A DNA stretch of 60,061 bases, taken from Candidatus Omnitrophota bacterium. Its GTDB lineage: Bacteria > Omnitrophota > Gorgyraeia > Tantalellales > Tantalellaceae. A program made the position numbers and the translations under genes. Below, one piece after another: positions 3,424 to 39,994 of this stretch (positions are counted from its first letter, which is position 1; the number at the start of each line of letters is the position of its first letter). The notes below the pieces were generated by a model, which saw only the letters and a list, made by a program, of their open reading frames with translations, was not told the origin of the DNA and did no database searches. The stretch spans positions 1 to 60,061 of the forward strand of contig JADHWG010000004.1 in NCBI GenBank assembly GCA_016783605.1, in the 5' to 3' direction.

Positions 3424-3468
3424 TAAAAAACCATCGAGTGAAACACCTAATATGGTTTGCGCGCCCTT

Positions 3469-3512
3469 CGACAACCTCGTAGGTTGCTTTGCAACCTACG
3501 AGGTTGTCGAAG
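3469..3512. repeat. GTAG-type REP palindrome, CAACCTCGTAGG family
   Basis: ACAACCTCGTAGGTTGC...GCAACCTACGAGGTTGT; family members at about 29-57, 13765-13810, 24539-24582, 38870-38917, 41920-41968 and 43468-43518. Confidence 0.85.
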
Positions 3513-3549
3513 GGCGGGGCGGTTGATAAATAAAAAGAATAGGGATAAT

Positions 3550-13753: not shown

Positions 13754-13870
13754 GCGTAAGCCGTAACAACCTCGTAGGTTCAACCTCGTAGGTTGAACCT
13801 ACGAGGTTGAATGGAAGGTGAGCTCTGTGCCATGTACCGTGTAAGATAAATCAGGAAAGTGAGGGGGAAA

Positions 13871-20440: not shown

Positions 20441-20477
20441 TTGACATTGTATCCAAAATTGACTACAATTGTAGTCA
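20441..20477 (+). promoter_or_regulatory. Sigma70 promoter with overlapping palindromic operator for the MNT-HEPN module
   Basis: TTGACA-17-TACAAT; perfect 18-bp palindrome TGACTACAATTGTAGTCA (20460-20477) covers the -10 element. Confidence 0.75.
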
Positions 20478-20491
20478 GGAAGGATAACAAT

Positions 20492-21088
20492 ATGGATATT
20501 TTTAAAATTGCCAAATCAAAAACACGGGCGAAGATATTAAAGCATTTTTTCTTGAATAAAAAGGACAAATACTATTTGAGACAATTGGAAAGAATACTTC
20601 GAATCCCCGTGGGCAATATTCGCCGAGAACTTCTTTCTTTAGAAAAGATAGGACTTTTTCGAAAAGAAAAAAAGGGGAAAGAAATTTACTATTTCTTGAA
20701 TACGAACTTACCGATTTTTCGAGAAATTGAAAAGATCATATCCAGTACAATAGGGATCGAGGCTATTCTCAAACAGGGTTTTCAAAGCATAAAGGGAATT
20801 CGGTTTTGTTTTATATATGGCTCGGTTGCAAAAGGAAAAGAAGATTTTTTTAGTGATGTGGATTTGTTTATTGTGGGTGGAGAGAATGAAGAAGATGTAA
20901 TACTTGAAACTGTCAAAAAAATGGAAAAAGAAATTTCACGCGAGATAAATTATACGATTTTTACGGAAGAGGACATAGCGCAAGGACTTAAAAAGGGCAA
21001 AGTGTTTTTAAAGGATGTGTTGAAGGGGCACAAGATATTTTTAATAGGTGATGAAAATGGTATGGAAAAAGTTATTGGAAAGCGGTAA
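20492..21088 (+). CDS. wHTH plus minimal nucleotidyltransferase (MNT) antitoxin
   Basis: N-terminal HTH (YLRQLER..NIRREL); YGSVAKG...SDVDL. Confidence 0.85.
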   Translation: MDIFKIAKSKTRAKILKHFFLNKKDKYYLRQLERILRIPVGNIRRELLSLEKIGLFRKEKKGKEIYYFLNTNLPIFREIEKIISSTIGIEAILKQGFQSIKGIRFCFIYGSVAKGKEDFFSDVDLFIVGGENEEDVILETVKKMEKEISREINYTIFTEEDIAQGLKKGKVFLKDVLKGHKIFLIGDENGMEKVIGKR

Positions 21089-21485
21089 GGTTCAGAAAAA
21101 AAGTATATCGGCGGAGGAAGTAAAAATAGTTCTTGGCAAGGCGCAAAGAACATTGCGTAGTGCCGCACTTTTGTTGGAAGAAGATGAAGAATCAGCGTAT
21201 CAACTGGCATATGAGGCTATGCTGATCGGTGGAAGAGCTTTGATGTTTTCTTACGGCGTTAAACCGCGAAGTGTCGGCGCGCACAAAATTACCGTTGAAT
21301 TCTGTGAGTTGTCTTTGGGAAAAGAGTATCAACTGTTTATTGGAAAGCTTGATCGGGCGCGGAAGAAAAGACATTATTTGATGTACGGTATAGGGCAAAT
21401 CATTTCTTCAACCGAAGCCGCCAATTTGATACAAACAGCGGAAAAATTTTTATCAATAATTGAAAAAGAAGTTAAATGGCACTAA
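21057..21485 (+). CDS. HEPN domain toxin
   Basis: AYQLAYEAM, GAH, RKKRHYLMY; overlaps the MNT gene. Confidence 0.8.
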   Translation: MVWKKLLESGKVQKKSISAEEVKIVLGKAQRTLRSAALLLEEDEESAYQLAYEAMLIGGRALMFSYGVKPRSVGAHKITVEFCELSLGKEYQLFIGKLDRARKKRHYLMYGIGQIISSTEAANLIQTAEKFLSIIEKEVKWH

Positions 21486-24524: not shown

Positions 24525-24672
24525 TTACCGCCCGGGAAACAACCTCGTAGGTTGAACCTCGTAGGTTGAACCTACGAGGTTCAATTGCACCAACTTTCGC
24601 ATGGGGGCACATGCAATGTGCCCCTACGGATTACGAGGTTGTTGGTTGGGTTTGACGATTAAAGACGGAATT

Positions 24673-33161: not shown

Positions 33162-33873
33162 GAAAAAATATAAAAAATGGTATTACAACCATGCACCATT
33201 CTTTTTTAGAATATATATATTGTCGATGTTTTTTTTACTACACTCAACAAATATGTATGCACAGAATTTACAATCAATAGAGTTTGCGGAACATGAAAAT
33301 AATTACATCGCGACAACCCTTAAGCTAATGACTGAGTTAGGATTTGTGGTGCGGGATACATTTAAAAACAACATGAATCTAGATGACTTTTATTCAAATG
33401 GGAATAAGTACAATGGGGCAAGGCTTTTTCGTATTAAGTGGATAGATACTACAGATAGTGGTTATGCAGAGGTACAAGCAAAAAGGGCTTATAAAATTAA
33501 GAATTATTCATCTCAAGCCTACGATGACTATACAATCTTAATGCTTCAAAAATATAAAGCCCAATACAGAGAAGATCCAATTATTCACGAGTGTGTTCAT
33601 TTCCTTCAGCATGCTACTCATAAGGATGAAAGTAATTATATTGATTTTACCGGCAAAAATTATCGTGAATATGTTATGCAACGCACAGAATTAGAAGCTC
33701 ATTTGGTGCAGATTCTTTATATTGTTAAAAATAATCACGAAAGATTAAAAAAGCATCTGTCAAGAGAACAACAGCTAAAGCTTGAAAAGATAATTTCTGA
33801 ATATAAAAAATCTCGAAATATTCTTGCTGGGGTTGAGGCCATAATAATGTGCAAGCAAGGAGGCTTGATCTAA
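33160..33873 (+). CDS. Cassette 6: putative exported zincin metalloprotease-like protein
   Basis: IIHECVHFLQH (HExxH) plus downstream ELEAH; hydrophobic N-terminus. Confidence 0.6.
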   Translation: MKKYKKWYYNHAPFFFRIYILSMFFLLHSTNMYAQNLQSIEFAEHENNYIATTLKLMTELGFVVRDTFKNNMNLDDFYSNGNKYNGARLFRIKWIDTTDSGYAEVQAKRAYKIKNYSSQAYDDYTILMLQKYKAQYREDPIIHECVHFLQHATHKDESNYIDFTGKNYREYVMQRTELEAHLVQILYIVKNNHERLKKHLSREQQLKLEKIISEYKKSRNILAGVEAIIMCKQGGLI

Positions 33874-33991
33874 AGTTAATACTTAGCGGTTTTATGACAT
33901 GTAAGGCTACCTTGATTTCGGTACTTAAACCTTTGATTTTTACTTCTTTCGAAATATTTGGGAACTTTAGACAATATGATAATATGAAAAC

Positions 33992-34057
33992 ACATAACAA
34001 TTCAATCAACCGGGCTTTTTTCGCTCGCCTCTGGCGGGCTCCAAAAGCCGGTTATAA
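33992..34057 (+). mobile_element. attC site 6, lacking its R' end
   Basis: ACATAACAATTCAATCAACCGG...CCGGTTAT, without the TTCAAGCGTTAT seen in attC1. Confidence 0.8.
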
Positions 34058-34072
34058 ACGATTTGGAAAACA

Positions 34073-35086
34073 ATGAAATCAAACAGTGAAATGATAATCT
34101 ATCAGTCTCCTACCGGCAATATAAAAATAGACGTCCATTTGGAAAATGAAACCGTCTGGCTAACCCAAAAACTGATGGCAGAGCTTTTTCAGACCGCTGT
34201 ACCCAATATAAACATGCATCTTAAAAGCATTTATGAAGAAGAGGAATTAACAGAAGAGGCAACTATTAAGGATTTCTTAATAGTTCAAAAAGAAGGTAAC
34301 CGAGAAGTAAACCGTAAACAGAAATTCTATAATCTGGATGTTATTATATCTGTGGGATATAGAATAAAATCACAAACTGCAACACAATTCCGTATCTGGG
34401 CAACCAAGAGGCTAAAGGAATACATTGTTAAAGGTTTTGTCCTCAATGACGAAAGGTTTAAAACCGGCAATTCCATGAATTATTTCAATGAGTTGCAGGC
34501 GCGTCTACGAGAAATACGCCTTTCTGAAAGGTTTTTTTATCAAAAAATAAAAGACATTTATGCAACCAGCATAGATTATGATCCCAAAGATGAAGAAACG
34601 ATCGAATTCTTTAAGATAATACAAAACAAACTACTCTGGGCAATCAGTAGCCAAACAGCCGCGGAACTTATTTACAGGAGAATAGACGCTTCTTTGCCTT
34701 TATTAGGTATGCAGTCTTATGACAAGGATAACGTTGGAAAAATCAGGAAAAGTGATGTCAGCATTGCCAAAAACTATTTAAATGAAGAAGAAATAAAGCT
34801 TCTTGGTTTATTGGTTGAACAGTACCTTGCTTTTGCGGAAACAATGGCACAGCAACATACACCAATGTACATGAAAGACTGGATGAGCAAACTGGATAAT
34901 ATTTTACAGATGAATGGCAGGGAACTACTTACCCATGCCGGAAAAATAAGTCATCAAATGGCTATTGAAAAATCAAATCAGGAATTAGAAAAATATAACG
35001 AAGAACAAAAAAAAATAACCCATGAACAAAGTTTAAAAGAAATTGAAGAGGATATAAAGAGATTAAAAAAAGATAAAGATACATAA
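34073..35086 (+). CDS. Cassette 7: RhuM-family protein
   Basis: ETVWLTQKLMAELF, YNLDVIISVGYRIKS..ATQFRIWA, GFVLNDERFK. Confidence 0.92.
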   Translation: MKSNSEMIIYQSPTGNIKIDVHLENETVWLTQKLMAELFQTAVPNINMHLKSIYEEEELTEEATIKDFLIVQKEGNREVNRKQKFYNLDVIISVGYRIKSQTATQFRIWATKRLKEYIVKGFVLNDERFKTGNSMNYFNELQARLREIRLSERFFYQKIKDIYATSIDYDPKDEETIEFFKIIQNKLLWAISSQTAAELIYRRIDASLPLLGMQSYDKDNVGKIRKSDVSIAKNYLNEEEIKLLGLLVEQYLAFAETMAQQHTPMYMKDWMSKLDNILQMNGRELLTHAGKISHQMAIEKSNQELEKYNEEQKKITHEQSLKEIEEDIKRLKKDKDT

Positions 35087-35170
35087 CAAATCGCTGTACC
35101 TGACCGCCAAATTGCTACGCGATTTGGTTTCCTCACTTCGTTCGGCGGCAGGTGAGCTTTTGCGTTAGGA
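35081..35170 (+). mobile_element. attC site 7
   Basis: ACATAAC...ACCTGACCGCC..GGCGGCAGGT...GTTAGGA. Confidence 0.88.
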
Positions 35171-35179
35171 GAAGAAAAA

Positions 35180-35413
35180 ATGAATAATAATTCGGGATAC
35201 TATAGCGATGATGGGGAAAAATTAAATCCAAATCTTATCTCTAAACCATCATTATGTACAATGTGTAAAAAAGATGATAATCCAGAAGAAGAAATATTGT
35301 GTAATCTAAATAGGTTGGACCAAACAGATTCTGAAGAATTTAAATGTTATTCATATGAACAAAAATATAATCCGAATTCAGACGAAGAGTCAAAATATCA
35401 TGCATCACTGTAG
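35180..35413 (+). CDS. Cassette 8: small acidic four-Cys protein
   Basis: CTMC..C..C; SD AGGAG; stop codon supplied by a REP. Confidence 0.7.
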   Translation: MNNNSGYYSDDGEKLNPNLISKPSLCTMCKKDDNPEEEILCNLNRLDQTDSEEFKCYSYEQKYNPNSDEESKYHASL

Positions 35414-35525
35414 GGGCCGGGCCTGCCCGGCCCTCCAATTAATAATAACAAGGCGTGGTATAAACAATAAATTATCGAAGAATAATAAATCATAAATTAA
35501 AGGACAAGGCATGCCTTGTCCCTAC
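35410..35525. mobile_element. REPIN-like doublet of GTAG REPs
   Basis: GTAGGGGCCGGGCCTGCCCGGCCCT ... AGGACAAGGCATGCCTTGTCCCTAC. Confidence 0.7.
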
Positions 35526-35558
35526 AGGATATTTGTGATAAAACGAAAATAAACAAAA

Positions 35559-35580
35559 TTATAACAATTCAATCAACCGG
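35559..35580 (+). mobile_element. Left half of an attC site, truncated just before intI
   Basis: TTATAACAATTCAATCAACCGG matches the attC1/attC6 left arm; right arm absent. Confidence 0.75.
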
Positions 35581-35591
35581 TATTTTGGGGG

Positions 35592-37065
35592 ATGAAGAGT
35601 ATGCGGGAAGAGATTTTACCGGAATTTCAGAGGTTTTTAATTGCGAAGGGGCTTGGCAGTTCCAGGACTGCGCCTTATCACGCGTATTGGGTGGGCAGGT
35701 TTCTATCGTTTTCCAACGATCACCGGGACTTGTCTTTTGAGGCAAGGATGAGTGAGTTTTTTAGTTATCTGAGGGGTCGGGGAGTTTTTCTCCGAACCCT
35801 CATCCCGAGCAAAGCGAAGGATCTCTGGTTAATTTTTCAAAAGGGTCTAATAGAGATCCTTCAGCCCTTTGGGCTTCAGGATGAGGAGTCGGGAAACTCC
35901 CCGACCCCTCAGTTATCTTCATCATCATAACACTGCGGATTGGCAAATGGAGCAAGCATGGGAGGCGGTTAAAATTTATTTCGAACATTTTCAGGCAATT
36001 GATACGAAGCAAGTATCTGATGTGTCTTATTTTGGGCATAATTTTGCCGAGTCGGACATTATTGACAGGGCGCGTCAGGCACTACGTCTTAAGCATTATT
36101 CATATGCTACAGAGCGGGCATATCTTGATTGGGTCAGGCGGTTTTTTGTTTATGTTCAGAATGAAAAAAAGAAGGATGACGCGAAGTGGCCCGTAGGTTC
36201 TGATGACGTAAAAGAATATCTGAGTTATCTAACGACGAAGCAAAAGGTTTCTTCATCAACTCAGAATCAGGCTTTCAACGCGCTTTTATTTCTGTTTAGA
36301 GATGTGCTTGGGATTGAGCTAAGCGGGTTAAGCAAGGTTGTACGGGCTAAAAGGGGGCCTAAATTGCCCGTGGTGCTGACGGTAGAAGAAGTTCGCGGTT
36401 TGTTTCAATTTGTAAAAGAAAGAAATCTGCTTATTATTCAGTTGTTGTATGGTGCGGGTATGCGTTTAATGGAAGTGGTGCGTTTACGGGTAAAAGATAT
36501 TGATTTTGATTCGGGGTTAATATTTGTACGAAGTGGTAAGGGGGATAAAGACCGTTCGACTATCTTGCCGCGGGTTACAAAAGAACAATTATGCGGCCAT
36601 TTAGAAAAGATAGAGATTTTACATAAAAAGGATATTGATCAAGGACATGGCGAAGTGTATTTACCGAATGGGCTTGGGCGTAAATATCCTAATTCTGCAA
36701 AAGAGTGGGGATGGCAGTATGTGTTCCCCGCGTCAAACCTTTCAGTCGATCCGCGCAGTGGGAAAGTGCGGCGTCATCATATCAGTCCCAGTACGATACA
36801 AAAAACGGTTAAAGAGGCGGTTAAAAAAGCGGGGATCGTTAAGCCCGCGACCGTTCATACTTTAAGGCACAGTTTTGCCACGCATCTTTTAATGAATGGG
36901 GTTAACATAAGGGCTATTCAGGAACTTCTGGGGCATAAGAATGTTGAAACAACAATGATTTATACGCATGTCTTAAGAGAAATGGCGAACATGCCCAAGA
37001 GTCCGTTAGATAATCTTTATGGGGAAGATCTAACGCGGGAGAAGGTTACCGGATTATTGAAATAG
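35592..37065 (+). pseudogene. intI: Integron integrase with N-terminal extension, frameshifted by a MITE; core domains intact in ORF 35869-37065
   Basis: LKHYSYATERAYLDWV, STQNQAFNALLFL, GMRLME, IntI-specific insert VYLPNGLGRKYPNSAKEWGWQYVFP, HTLRHSFATH, LGHKNVETTMIYTH. Confidence 0.9.
35771..35910. mobile_element. 140-bp MITE inserted in intI
   Basis: 17-bp perfect TIR GAGGGGTCGGGGAGTTT; 8-bp TSD AGTTATCT at 35763-35770 and 35911-35918. Confidence 0.93.
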
Positions 37066-37196
37066 TGCAACGGTTCTATTTCTTGACCTATTGGGCAGAA
37101 GACAATCGGAGAAGGCTGAAAAAATAGAATCCTTTTTTTGATTGGATGGAGAAATTAAATTAGTACGCAAATTCAATTCATGGAAGGAAAATTTAG

Positions 37197-37490
37197 ATGA
37201 AAAAATCAATTATTCCATTGGAGCAGAATGATTTCTTTCTTTATACGGGTGTTGACGGTAAGGTGAATGTTGAAGTGTTCCTGAAAGATGAAACGGTTTG
37301 GCTTACACAAAAAGCGATGGGGCAACTTTTTGGGGTTGAAAGCAACACCATTACTTATCATCTGAAAGAAATATATAAGTCGGGAGAACTTGAAGCGGAT
37401 GTAACTGCTCGAAAACTTCGAGCAGTTCAAGCCGAAGGGGAAAGAGAGGTAACAAGGACAAAAATAGGGACAGACACACACTTTAGGTAA
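37197..37490 (+). pseudogene. 3'-truncated RhuM-family gene
   Basis: ETVWLTQKAMGQLF..HLKEIYKSGEL..EGEREV, then abrupt switch into the AAATAGGGACAGACAC motif. Confidence 0.8.
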
Positions 37491-37649
37491 TTAGGGACGG
37501 TTTTTTTTGATTGAACAGATCCCGAAATATCGGGATAGCAAGGGTGTGAGTGAGGTGTTTCTGATTATTGGAGATTCCCGCCTTCGCGGGAATGACAAAG
37601 GGCGCGAGGATGACAGTGAAGGGAAGGTGCTATAATTACTGTTATCGAT

Positions 37650-37735
37650 TTGAAGTCACAATCTGTGACTTCAAGTTGGGGTAGAAGGCGTTATTTTTCG
37701 CATATTTTTACTGGGCAAGGAGTGGCGATGCTCTT
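37650..37735 (+). pseudogene. ORF6N-domain gene fragment
   Basis: Manual translation LKSQSVTSSWGRRRYFSHIFTGQGVAML resembles the ORF6N motif ...SQ..TSSWGG.R..PYAFTEQGVAML. Confidence 0.7.
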
Positions 37736-37755
37736 AAAATTAAATGGAGAGCGAT

Positions 37756-38814
37756 ATGAGTATCTTGGTGAATAATAAAGAGTATAGACAGTGGCTTTTA
37801 AAGCTGAAGAGTAAAATCCAAAAGGCTCAAATCAAAGCCGCTGTTAAAGTGAATACAGAACTTTTATTGCTTTATTGGGAAATAGGTGCGGATATAGCTC
37901 AAAAGCAAAAAAATGCCAAATGGGGAACAGGATTTGTTGATCAATTGAGCAAAGATTTAGTGCGAGAATTCCCAGATATGAAGGGATTTTCCCGAACGAA
38001 TCTTTTGTACATACGTAAATGGTATTTGTTTTATTCAAAAGGGATTGAAAAAGTCCCACAAGTTGTGGGACAAATAGAACGTTCTCAAATTAAAGATATT
38101 TTTTACATTCCATGGGGGCAAAATAGGGAAATTATTACCAAGTGTAAAACTACAGACGAGGCTCTTTTTTATGTACAAAAAACCATTCAACATAATTGGA
38201 GCCGTAATGTCCTTGTACATCAGATAGAAAGCGGTCTTTTTGAGAGAGAAGGAACATCTGTCAATAATTTCACCTTAACTCTCCCCAAACCGCAGTCTGA
38301 CCTTGCGAAACAAACTCTTAAAGATCCTTATGTGTTTGATTTTTTAAGTATGACCGAAGATTATCATGAAAAAGAACTGGAAAATGTTCTTGTTGAGCAC
38401 ATAACGAAATTTTTATTAGAGTTGGGTGCGGGGTTTGCTTATGTTGGGCGGCAGATTCGATTAGAAGTTGGCGAAGGTGAGTTTTTTGTTGATCTGTTGT
38501 TTTATCACGTAAAACTACATTGTTATGTTGTGGTGGAATTAAAGACCGGTAAGTTTGAGCCGGAACATGCGGGGAAATTAAATTTTTATGTAACAGCCGT
38601 AGATCGTCAATTAAGGTCAGTATCAGATCAGCCGACTATTGGCATTCTTATTTGTAAAACAAAAGATAAAATCGTGGCAGAATATGCGTTAAGCGACATT
38701 AAAAAACCGATAGGAGTTTCACAGTATCAATTAACAAAAGCATTACCCAAAAAGTTTAAATCCAGTTTGCCGTCAATTAAAGAAATTGAGGCGGAATTGA
38801 GTGATAAGAAATAA
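37756..38814 (+). CDS. YhcG/DUF1016 PD-(D/E)xK nuclease-domain protein
   Basis: AAVKVNTELLLLYWEIG, GFSRTNL, KDPYVFDFL, FLLELGAGFAYVGRQ, DLLFYH, VVELK. Confidence 0.92.
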   Translation: MSILVNNKEYRQWLLKLKSKIQKAQIKAAVKVNTELLLLYWEIGADIAQKQKNAKWGTGFVDQLSKDLVREFPDMKGFSRTNLLYIRKWYLFYSKGIEKVPQVVGQIERSQIKDIFYIPWGQNREIITKCKTTDEALFYVQKTIQHNWSRNVLVHQIESGLFEREGTSVNNFTLTLPKPQSDLAKQTLKDPYVFDFLSMTEDYHEKELENVLVEHITKFLLELGAGFAYVGRQIRLEVGEGEFFVDLLFYHVKLHCYVVVELKTGKFEPEHAGKLNFYVTAVDRQLRSVSDQPTIGILICKTKDKIVAEYALSDIKKPIGVSQYQLTKALPKKFKSSLPSIKEIEAELSDKK

Positions 38815-38950
38815 CCTTGTTTGTCTTTTGAAGAGAGGAAAATTGTTTTAAAATTGGGCGATCTACCGGCAACCTCGTAGGATAGTGGTGTGGGGACGCG
38901 CTCCTAACCTGCGAGGATGCCGGTGGGGAGTCGATGAAAGTGGATAACAG

Positions 38951-39994
38951 ATGAAACGAATACTTATTTTTGAATTGAATTGGCTGGGGGATATACTTTT
39001 TTCTTTTCCGTTTATTCGGGAGGTGAGGAGGGCGTTTCCTTCGGCGCGTATCGCGGTGGCGGTTGTGTCTCGGTATCGGGGGCTTTTTGCGGGGAATGCG
39101 TGTGTTGATAAGGTGCATGTGCTTTCGGACTCGCGCGGCGCGGGGGCTTTTTTGGAGAAGGTGAGATTTGCGCGGGAAATTGCCGGGGAGAAATATGATG
39201 CTTGTTTTTTTCTGAAACCTTCTGTTTCTAAGGGGGTTATGGCGTTTTGCGCGGGGGTTCGTTCGCGTATTGGGTTTGGCGGGAAGCGGATGTTTTTGAC
39301 CGAATATGTGAAGGCGCCTTCGGAAAACGTGCATAGGGCTCGGCGGTTGTTGGCGTTGGCTGGGGGGTTTGGCGGCGCGGTTGGGGATGATACGTATGAA
39401 TATGTTGTGCCGGCGGAAGATCCGGGAAAAGTTGATAAGTTGGTTCATTCTGCGGCGGAAGGCGGCTGGCGAGTTATTGCGTTTAATCCGGGAGGAAATT
39501 GGGGGGCTAAAAGGTGGCCGGTGGAGAATTTTATTTGTTTGGCGAAGGGTGTTCTCGAAAAATTCAGCGGTGTTGAAATTGTTGTTACCGGCGCGAAAAA
39601 GGATGTGGGACTTGCGGAAAAAATAGTTTCGGGGGTTGGAAGTGAGAGGTGTTATTCTGTCGCGGAAAAAACGGATTTGAGGGTTCTGGCGGCGTTGTAT
39701 AAAAGGTGCGCGCTTTTGGTTAGCGCGGATTCGGGACCGATTCATTTGGCTTCGGCGGTGGGGACGACTACGATCGGTATTTTTGGGCCTACGGATCCGG
39801 AGGTTACCGGGCCGAGAGGGGTGGGGAAAAGTGTTATTGTGCGAGAGAGAGTTGATTGTAAAATTCCTTGTTATGAAGAGGTGTGCGGGGAAGATTATGT
39901 GTGTATGAGAGATGTGACTGTCGGGAAAGTTTTTAAAGCGGTTTGTGCAGAATTGGGTGGTGGGAATAGAGATCCCGGGTCAAGCCCGGGATGA
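38951..39994 (+). CDS. GT9 LPS heptosyltransferase (WaaF-like)
   Basis: NWLGD, KRWP, DSGPIHLASA, FGPT. Confidence 0.88.
   Translation: MKRILIFELNWLGDILFSFPFIREVRRAFPSARIAVAVVSRYRGLFAGNACVDKVHVLSDSRGAGAFLEKVRFAREIAGEKYDACFFLKPSVSKGVMAFCAGVRSRIGFGGKRMFLTEYVKAPSENVHRARRLLALAGGFGGAVGDDTYEYVVPAEDPGKVDKLVHSAAEGGWRVIAFNPGGNWGAKRWPVENFICLAKGVLEKFSGVEIVVTGAKKDVGLAEKIVSGVGSERCYSVAEKTDLRVLAALYKRCALLVSADSGPIHLASAVGTTTIGIFGPTDPEVTGPRGVGKSVIVRERVDCKIPCYEEVCGEDYVCMRDVTVGKVFKAVCAELGGGNRDPGSSPG

Follow-up and report, generated by a model that had tools for sequence, protein, structure and literature searches.

In a 60,061-nt stretch of contig JADHWG010000004.1 from a Candidatus Omnitrophota bacterium (hereafter the window), genes of the RhuM, ORF6N, and DUF1016 (YhcG) families carry short perfect palindromes within their reading frames, and in relatives of these genes the symmetry of the DNA is conserved at the homologous site while the encoded peptide changes. 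This conservation is accompanied by compensatory changes between the two arms, by a signature at the level of DNA, and by free-standing copies outside the genes. We suggest, at a probability of roughly 45%, that each palindrome is the cognate binding site of the DNA-binding protein encoded by the gene in which it lies. A sequence-only reading of the window had reported four in-frame palindromes in RhuM, ORF6N, and YhcG genes; a palindrome scan of the window found all four to be perfect and at exactly the coordinates first given (Table 1), three of them 25 nt long as claimed, and the gene assignments agree with Pfam and PADLOC. The two RhuM copies do occupy a homologous position, in the same codon register, and the proposal that symmetry is kept at the nucleic acid level while the peptide varies is borne out by compensatory pairs and by five gene sets.

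Conservation of symmetry at the palindrome site

Palindromes are abundant in this organism. The window holds 31 perfect ones (arm of at least 9 nt, loop of at most 6 nt), most of which belong to repeat families resembling repetitive extragenic palindromic (REP) sequences, and the genome holds 504 (arm of at least 10 nt, loop of at most 5 nt), compared with 8 after block shuffling. The genomic palindromes are again mostly REP-like, and 46 are singletons, some within housekeeping genes. The REP-like families include AACCTCGTAGGTT (41 copies) and GGGCACGGCATGCCGTGCCC (166 copies), with window copies at 30-56, 3462-3516, 13767-13811, and 24552-24584. Because palindromes are common genome-wide, conservation among relatives became the decisive question. 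The comparison took in 80 relatives each of the RhuM gene (67-93% identity), the RhuM fragment, and the DUF1016 gene, together with 30 ORF6N loci of the window's own phylum, a site being scored as conserved when at least 10 of 12 arm pairs were complementary at the same codons, with distinct sequences counted. The RhuM relatives span many phyla, among them Bacteroidota, Desulfobacterota, Cloacimonadota, and Cyanobacteria, as well as the archaeal Methanosarcinaceae. Conservation was found in 44 of 50 distinct RhuM sequences (mean, 10.8 pairs; control places, 4/1098), in 19 of 23 relatives of the RhuM fragment (mean, 10.35; 0/86), in 23 of 25 ORF6N sequences (mean, 11.44; 1/224), and in 46 of 60 DUF1016 sequences (mean, 10.25; 1/1369), so that 6 of 2,777 control places in these four sets reached the same level. 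A fifth set came from a KilA-N gene (PF04383) at locus L124, which bears a 16+0+16 palindrome at 1988-2019. Its 80 relatives (L340-L419) gave 45 distinct 32-mers with compensatory arm changes, in which 646 of 720 pair cells were Watson-Crick and the centre was GAATTC in all but one (44/45), although the peptides were as diverse as KPLEFEGF, NSIEFDGI, KGNEFVTF, and NYGEFAII. The KilA-N and ORF6N genes match their own Pfam families. Across the five sets, the homologous site showed 10 or more of the 12 pairs in 77 to 97% of distinct sequences, compared with 6 of 3,340 background places. Two other palindromes of the source genome served as negative controls: one in a clpC-like gene (10/12) is not kept in 29 orthologues (2-8/12), and a perfect 12+1+12 palindrome in glgP is not kept in 17 (2-9/12).

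The way in which the arms change is as telling as their pairing. Double-sided changes, such as A-T to G-C, occur at 9 of the 12 RhuM arm pairs and alter the peptide: Thr and Val swap places (ACT...GTT to GTT...ACT), and K..L becomes R..R. In the second RhuM subfamily, TTRKIRVV and TISILETV are both encoded by palindromes despite being different peptides. The symmetry is also confined to one place. Among 71,836 25-nt windows in 74 RhuM genes, 74 reach at least 10 pairs, of which 64 lie at the palindrome column, 9 at +8 nt, and 1 elsewhere, the +8-nt cases coming from one subclade in which the palindrome is shifted. Chance, or a constraint on the protein whose codons are incidentally palindromic, draws some support from the fact that certain conserved peptides are intrinsically quasi-palindromic: the glgP control averages about 6 of 12 pairs, and RhuM peptides resampled with synonymous codons still give 7.65 of 12. 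The observed RhuM value, however, is 10.3 of 12, and it exceeds the resampled value at p≤0.05 in 82% of distinct sequences, an enrichment over codon-shuffled controls of the kind that the sequence-only reading implied. Moreover, very different peptides and noncoding copies keep the symmetry. This explanation is refuted, and we regard it as confirmed that the palindromes are far from chance. The site lies at a similar distance from the start codon in most sets, the median from ATG to palindrome being 188 nt in RhuM, 203 nt in the RhuM-fragment relatives, 195 nt in ORF6N, 199 nt in KilA-N, and 298 nt in DUF1016. When the RhuM and ORF6N profiles were compared, the probability was 1.4%, which does not support homology of their N-domains; we therefore call the two palindrome places similar rather than homologous, and on present evidence the families are unrelated, as was first supposed.

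An RNA stem is expected to tolerate G.U far better than A.C. Mismatched cells in the five gene sets showed G.T and A.C in ratios of 3:3, 21:13, 8:6, 7:29, and 8:5, or 47:56 in total, and in KilA-N and RhuM the symmetry runs to a centre of 0-1 nt, so far inward that a hairpin could make no use of the innermost pairs. Of 60 RhuM sequences, 58 have TTC as the F codon, and the central codon takes the form RAW (AAA, AAT, GAT, or GAA) throughout. Since G.T and A.C mismatches are about equally common and the symmetry extends to the centre, the constraint appears to act on DNA rather than on mRNA. An mRNA hairpin controlling the stability, processing, or translation of potentially toxic genes is nevertheless conceivable in that stems of 10-13 bp would fold and that some free copies adjoin a ribosome-binding site or sit just past the end of a gene. 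Against this stand the failure of G.U to be better tolerated than A.C and the conservation of central pairs that would be useless in a hairpin; in addition, a scan of 33800-39000 against Rfam 15 found no family, its two subthreshold matches lying away from the palindromes, and no run of U follows the stems of the window palindromes or of the viral orphan copies. We consider such a role very improbable.

Free-standing copies and the proteins that may read them

Palindromes of the same types also occur outside the genes, which the sequence-only reading had missed. Upstream of its ORF6N gene, locus L254 carries about nine ORF6N-type palindromes within 750 nt, the last of them ending 15 nt ahead of the ATG; all are perfect or nearly so, and all differ in sequence. 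One or two free palindromes each were found at L252, L260, L263, L265, L270, L249, and L253. At 6 of 23 ORF6N loci and 6 of 69 KilA-N loci, the 150 nt upstream of the ATG contain a copy that shares at least 80% identity with the palindrome inside the gene, compared with 0 of 92 and 0 of 275 control windows, and the combination of such an upstream copy with the in-gene palindrome has what appears from the sequences to be the layout of an operator pair. A DNA-level search upstream of DUF1016 genes detected ORF6N-type copies at two archaeal loci, one copy at L171 and three in tandem at L180, and a whole ORF6N gene at L237. The idea that an ORF6N remnant upstream of DUF1016 is a general rule was rejected, none of 80 loci having one by protein match. 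At L124, the KilA-N locus, an orphan copy lies 19 nt upstream of a RhuM fragment.

Escherichia coli K-12 (NC_000913.3) has palindromes of its own. Its yhcG gene (3367827-3368954) contains three tandem in-frame palindromes with 11, 11, and 12 of 12 pairs, encoding IHQTMSGEL, GIPQTPSAEF, and KIWQTLSAKS, and a free yhcG-type copy lies just past the stop codon of gltD, 7 kb from yhcG. The SOS gene dinD (3817760-3818584), which encodes a Bro-N domain, carries an 11/12 palindrome, ACCATTTCGAGG-AGAT-CCTCGATATGGT, 176 nt into the gene (DHFEEILDMV), an instance from a single gene. Tandem in-frame duplications of the palindrome module are also seen in an ORF6N gene (L247:1571-1633; ALRSQNVTLN and DSRSQIVTLK) and in a DUF1016 gene (L229:581-667; IVQQPVGQI and FWQQPVAKI), and in both genes each copy is symmetric while the sequences of the copies differ. 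A RhuM-type palindrome, CAGTTGTCCGAAAAAATCGGACAACTG (QLSEKIGQL), lies at L126:2561-2587, at the junction of a RhuM gene and a gene that by eye resembles hsdS.

Viral contigs are a rich source of free copies. Of 30 exact ORF6N-type matches, classed by eye from their translations, 12 fell within ORF6N genes and 3 within some other long frame; 15 had no recognisable gene around them. In viral contigs L439, L442, and L444, an ORF6N-type palindrome at 701-725 is in frame (FLKSQFATSK) within a long frame that lacks ORF6N context. The 25-nt RhuM-type pattern matched at least 111 stretches; because it carries about 40 bits by our own estimate, fewer than one match would be expected by chance. In the 80 loci that we analysed from these 111 or more stretches there were 81 RhuM-type matches, 13 in RhuM-like genes and 68 not. 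These orphans comprise 64 distinct sequences with unrelated flanks, the symmetry ending exactly at the 25-nt edge in 45, and some abut other RhuM-type palindromes (L453, L455, and L489). Their neighbours are ordinary phage genes encoding methylase, scaffold, integrase, PrimPol, and other proteins. A RhuM-type orphan occurs once in each of five viral records, two of which are 99% complete or more; in these five, neither phmmer nor the PDC-S05 profile, which was positive in control genomes, detected a RhuM-like gene.

What the palindrome encodes was considered with an AlphaFold2 (AF2) model of the full RhuM protein. Its mean predicted local distance difference test score (pLDDT) is 51.6, the usable parts being the C-terminal helix and amino acids 30-110 (pLDDT 70-88), which are modelled as helices 32-38 and 43-55 and strands 65-74 and 77-86. 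On this model the palindrome (amino acids 63-71) encodes the first strand of a β-hairpin, or wing, following a helix-turn-helix, and the DNA-contacting segment proposed in the sequence-only reading may plausibly correspond to this strand. The best fold matches of the RhuM N-domain are winged-helix DNA-binding domains of partition proteins (3ez9_A, Z 7.3; 8csh_A, Z 7.2 with a root mean square deviation of 2.3 over 53 residues); sequence searches found no solved structure for RhuM, DUF1016, or ORF6N. In RhuM genes, the sequence of the inner arm is associated with the type of helix 43-55, and that of the outer arm with one of four wing types (VQxEGxRxV, TTAxDGK, TTTxHGAKTQ, and KKFGxS). The left outer arm tracks the wing type though it lies across the centre from the wing codons, and the coupling by symmetry is therefore strong. 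These links fit a protein that would read the inner bases with its helix and the outer bases with its wing. Other parts of the earlier proposal fared less well. The palindrome peptide is more variable than the RhuM gene as a whole (1.59 versus a mean of 0.81 bits), but it ranks 41st of 328 nine-residue windows and takes few discrete states; it forms no unique peak of local hypervariability, and the hairpin-templated mechanism of diversification that had been suggested is not supported.

Taken together, dyad symmetry in the DNA, operator-like pairs, free copies in phages, a predicted DNA-binding fold, and the precedent of BstA and aba (see below) lead us to favour a cognate binding site. The palindrome would be a double-stranded DNA site with two-fold symmetry, bound by a dimer of the protein from the same gene by way of its DNA-binding domain: the winged-helix-like N-terminal domain in RhuM, the domain of that name in ORF6N and KilA-N proteins, and the N-domain in DUF1016. 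Such a site would be written through the coding sequence about 190 nt past the start codon (about 300 nt in DUF1016), and because it must stay symmetric, codons and peptide would follow the DNA. Binding might serve self-recognition in the form of negative autoregulation, in some ORF6N and KilA-N genes with the help of the second copy near the start codon, or might instead provide an aba-like mark of "self" that restrains a defence protein; the free copies in phages and beside genes could then be stand-alone recognition or immunity sites. We infer that a protein binds the palindrome, which protein this would be, and what its binding would do, and the self-encoded operator of the sequence-only reading thus survives as the best-supported interpretation, short of proof.

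Several points weigh against a binding site. The fold matches have Z scores (7.2-7.3) of a level that the VIA fold search rates as common, and linkage plus symmetry would account equally well for the association of the arms with helix and wing types. RhuM and DUF1016 loci lack an upstream copy within 150 nt of the ATG (0/64, 0/76, and 0/55). Neighbouring free copies differ in sequence yet are each internally symmetric, which a dimer alone does not explain: either the copies of an array belong to different protein types, one to each, or some process that restores symmetry is also at work. The palindromes stay perfect in truncated and stop-containing copies and in a source genome that lacks an intact ORF6N gene. 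At least three unrelated families would each need to have evolved the same layout, and aba itself is not a palindrome, its noted feature being a terminal direct repeat.

Several of these points are met by supposing a self-maintaining quasi-palindrome, in which one arm is rewritten from the other through hairpin-templated strand switching or mismatch correction, no function being selected and the protein tolerating the outcome. Such a process would account for copies that are individually symmetric although their neighbours differ, for symmetry up to the centre with G.T and A.C equally frequent, for the persistence of perfection in pseudogenes and orphan remnants, and for the in-frame tandem duplications of the module (L247, L229, and E. 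coli yhcG). It gives no reason why just these families should be affected when the clpC-like and glgP palindromes are absent from 29 and 17 orthologues, and it leaves unexplained the fixed place about 190 nt past the ATG in four sets, the promoter-proximal cognate copies, and the discrete 25-nt copies, more than 60 in number, that occur in phages amid unrelated sequence. As a sole explanation we think it less likely than a binding site, but it is the most serious rival, and hairpin-templated symmetrising may well operate alongside binding. The palindromes might also be structure-forming DNA, a cruciform or single-strand hairpin used in recombination, insertion, or mobility and serving as a junction for the exchange of modules or cassettes, possibly by a recombinase such as the adjoining integron integrase. 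Their size matches that of classical cruciform-forming repeats, and their centres are AT-rich. The ORF6N remnant in the window begins exactly at its palindrome, L145 changes to another gene right past the palindrome, several RhuM fragments end 8-11 codons past it, the N-terminal, palindrome, and wing modules of RhuM are mosaic, and an integron integrase (TIGR02249) sits between the window genes. RhuM and DUF1016 are, in addition, enriched beside programmed-inversion loci (PMC9881135). Crossover between different palindromes, however, should yield asymmetric hybrids, and none was seen; the breakpoints of intact RhuM genes are not clustered, five pairs with a likelihood ratio (LR) >40 falling at columns 251, 251, 329, 351, and 548, with the palindrome at 173-197, and a strict triplet scan gave 2 events in 147,822 triplets, neither at the site, both tests having low power at this divergence. 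The count of truncations is biased by the query used, and an element of 25 nt that lacks extrahelical bases falls short of an attC site in length and is more perfect than one. We hold a recombination junction to be improbable.

To return to the cognate binding site, a more radical version of it is that site and reader are one. The palindrome would encode the first wing strand of the very protein that binds it, so that a single hairpin-templated change would switch site and specificity together and create interchangeable "immunity types," and free palindromes in phages, single or in abutting arrays of different types, would be decoys against RhuM-, ORF6N-, and KilA-N-type proteins. This is a long shot. 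Were it true, the in-gene palindromes would be the visible half of a widespread, hitherto undescribed recognition code of defence and counterdefence that includes E. coli K-12 yhcG and dinD.

The island that carries the window palindromes

The four palindrome-bearing genes and gene remnants of the window, and a TIR gene upstream of them, belong to an island that spans about 10.8 kb (roughly 28.1-38.9 kb) and in which three palindrome-bearing families stand side by side; genes for lipopolysaccharide heptosyltransferases flank it on either side, and the contig is otherwise devoted to housekeeping functions. The source genome is 1.65 Mb and 95% complete. Coordinates and family assignments are collected in Table 1.

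Table 1. Palindromes and palindrome-bearing genes of the window
Feature	Position	Strand	Arm+centre+arm	Placement or evidence
RhuM-type palindrome, AACTATTAAG-GATTT-CTTAATAGTT	34261..34285		10+5+10	Codons 63-71 (ATIKDFLIV), 188 nt past ATG
RhuM-type palindrome, second subfamily, AACTGCTCGAA-AAC-TTCGAGCAGTT (TARKLRAV)	37403..37427		11+3+11	
ORF6N-type palindrome, TTGAAGTCACA-ATC-TGTGACTTCAA	37650..37674		11+3+11	First bases of ORF6N remnant; 70 nt upstream of DUF1016 start
DUF1016-type palindrome, GTCCCACAA-G-TTGTGGGAC (VPQVVG)	38053..38071		9+1+9	309 nt past ATG
RhuM-family gene, intact, 337 aa	34073..35086	+		PF13310 E 7e-103, PDC-S05 E 3e-137
RhuM N-terminal fragment, 97 aa	37197..37490	+		PDC-S05 E 4e-29; comparison with full-length relatives
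ORF6N C-terminal remnant (LKSQSVTSSWGRRRYFSHIFTGQGVAML...)	37650..37775	+		PF10543 E 6e-4, 20.5 bits, cut-off 27.8
DUF1016/YhcG gene, intact, PD-(D/E)xK nuclease family	37744..38814	+		PF17761 and PF06250; PDC-S02 E 7e-158

The intact RhuM gene scores 343.8 bits against a PF13310 cut-off of 33.7 and is thus a member of that family, as is the DUF1016 gene of its two families, with scores of 145.2 (PF17761) and 225 bits (PF06250), both above cut-off. The RhuM fragment (37197-37490) has no Pfam match, and its likeness to full-length relatives stops about 11 codons past the palindrome. The ORF6N remnant (37650-37775) scores under the gathering cut-off and covers just positions 55-85 of the PF10543 profile, as a truncated copy should; stop codons lie directly upstream of the start of its palindrome. 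ORF6N palindrome remnants occur on three contigs of the source genome, in which no intact ORF6N gene was found. PADLOC lists the RhuM gene and its fragment (PDC-S05), the DUF1016 gene (PDC-S02), and an upstream TIR gene (PDC-S35) as single-gene defence candidates.

The island also encodes an integron integrase (TIGR02249, 419 bits; 35869-37065), which shares its strand with the RhuM, ORF6N, and DUF1016 genes on either side. The integrase gene is split (frames 35592-35930 and 35869-37065) by a 148-nt element at 35763-35910 with 25-nt terminal inverted repeats. A contig from run X9 joins 35762 to 35911 without this element, 8 nt fitting both sides as a likely target duplication, and given its very high depth in three metagenomes, the element is a high-copy one resembling a transposable element of the miniature inverted-repeat kind (MITE). 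Summed contig depth is likewise very high (540-667) in three metagenomes across 37574-37740, which contains a repeat of the CGCGGGAATGAC type together with the ORF6N palindrome. Contigs from four DNA runs showed neither a joint nor an inversion at the palindromes; contig ends in X4 at 34281, 37652, and 37681 are expected from short assembly words at shared repeats and are uninformative. Elsewhere in the window, a nucleotidyltransferase and HEPN pair resembling a toxin-antitoxin module (20441-21485) lies between kdtA and lpxK, and a 9+0+9 palindrome (20460-20477) lies at the start of its first gene.

Relation to known systems

Few uncharacterised genes are as common in defence islands and type I restriction operons as those of the RhuM, ORF6N, KilA-N, and DUF1016 families, and we know of no ligand for any of their proteins. 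A DNA element conserved above the protein sequence points to the DNA on which these proteins probably act, and yhcG and dinD of E. coli K-12 offer a testable handle. If the free copies in phages are decoys, they would represent a new layer of defence and counterdefence. The palindromes also provide a clear bacterial case in which nucleic acid symmetry dictates amino acid sequence, and they call for caution in codon-based evolutionary models and in gene recoding. DUF1016 and RhuM are among the annotations most enriched beside the targets of programmed inversion, with odds ratios of 17 and 14 (Milman et al. 2023, PMC9881135), and this confirms that type I restriction loci house both; the string "palindrom" is absent from the main text of that paper. 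No published description of palindromes in RhuM, ORF6N, or DUF1016 was found in titles, abstracts, or selected passages. The present window contributes the RhuM family, represented by two subfamilies, three families side by side within a single island, the negative controls, the G.T/A.C test in five sets, and the gene-less RhuM-type viral copies.

Quasi-palindromes are known to mutate by template switching (the Ripley model, studied with thyA and lacZ reporters in E. coli), which brings about concerted change in both arms and the perfection of short palindromes. This is a mutational mechanism rather than an element, and it predicts neither conservation specific to a family and position nor copies in phages. 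REP sequences and REPINs, which go with cognate RAYT (Y1 HUH) transposases, and integron attC sites resemble the present palindromes in being short, dispersed or arrayed, and more conserved in structure than in sequence. An attC site is an imperfect palindrome of 57-141 bp with R''/L''-L'/R' boxes and extrahelical bases, and it is not matched by palindromes that are 19-27 nt long, perfect, and without unpaired bases. REP and attC elements are imperfect, longer, and extragenic and have flanking motifs or extrahelical bases, whereas the palindromes here have no R/L boxes; the abundant REP-like families of the source genome differ from them in sequence. Sites within genes include lac O2 in lacZ, gal OI in galE, and replication origins in rep genes such as pT181 repC and phiX174 gene A. 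Like the proposed site, they are protein-binding DNA within coding sequence, some of them paired with a promoter-proximal site; unlike it, they answer to a separate regulator or function in replication. We know of no intragenic operator or origin that forces compensatory amino acid changes across a whole gene family. Perfect inverted repeats of up to 284 bp, with both arms coding, have been described in functional genes of hairworm mitochondria (2019, PMC6649704). In that account they occur in many genes of animal mitochondria, with no link to DNA binding or defence and with no free-standing copies.

The closest parallel is BstA of prophage BTP1, a defence protein with a KilA-N-like DNA-binding domain. 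It is suppressed by aba, 63 bp of DNA that overlap the gene for BstA itself (Owen et al. 2021, PMC8585504). Aba acts as DNA, is variant specific, and works when moved to another phage or to a plasmid; it consists of 29 bp upstream and 34 bp of coding sequence, spanning the start codon, with terminal direct repeats (PMC8585504). By comparison, the elements described here are perfect palindromes of 25-32 nt about 190 nt inside the gene, and they occur in several families and in chromosomal single-gene islands. What the two have in common is a DNA-level element that overlaps the gene of the defence protein or candidate defence protein, known in the present case from its sequence signature of symmetry and variant-specific copies.

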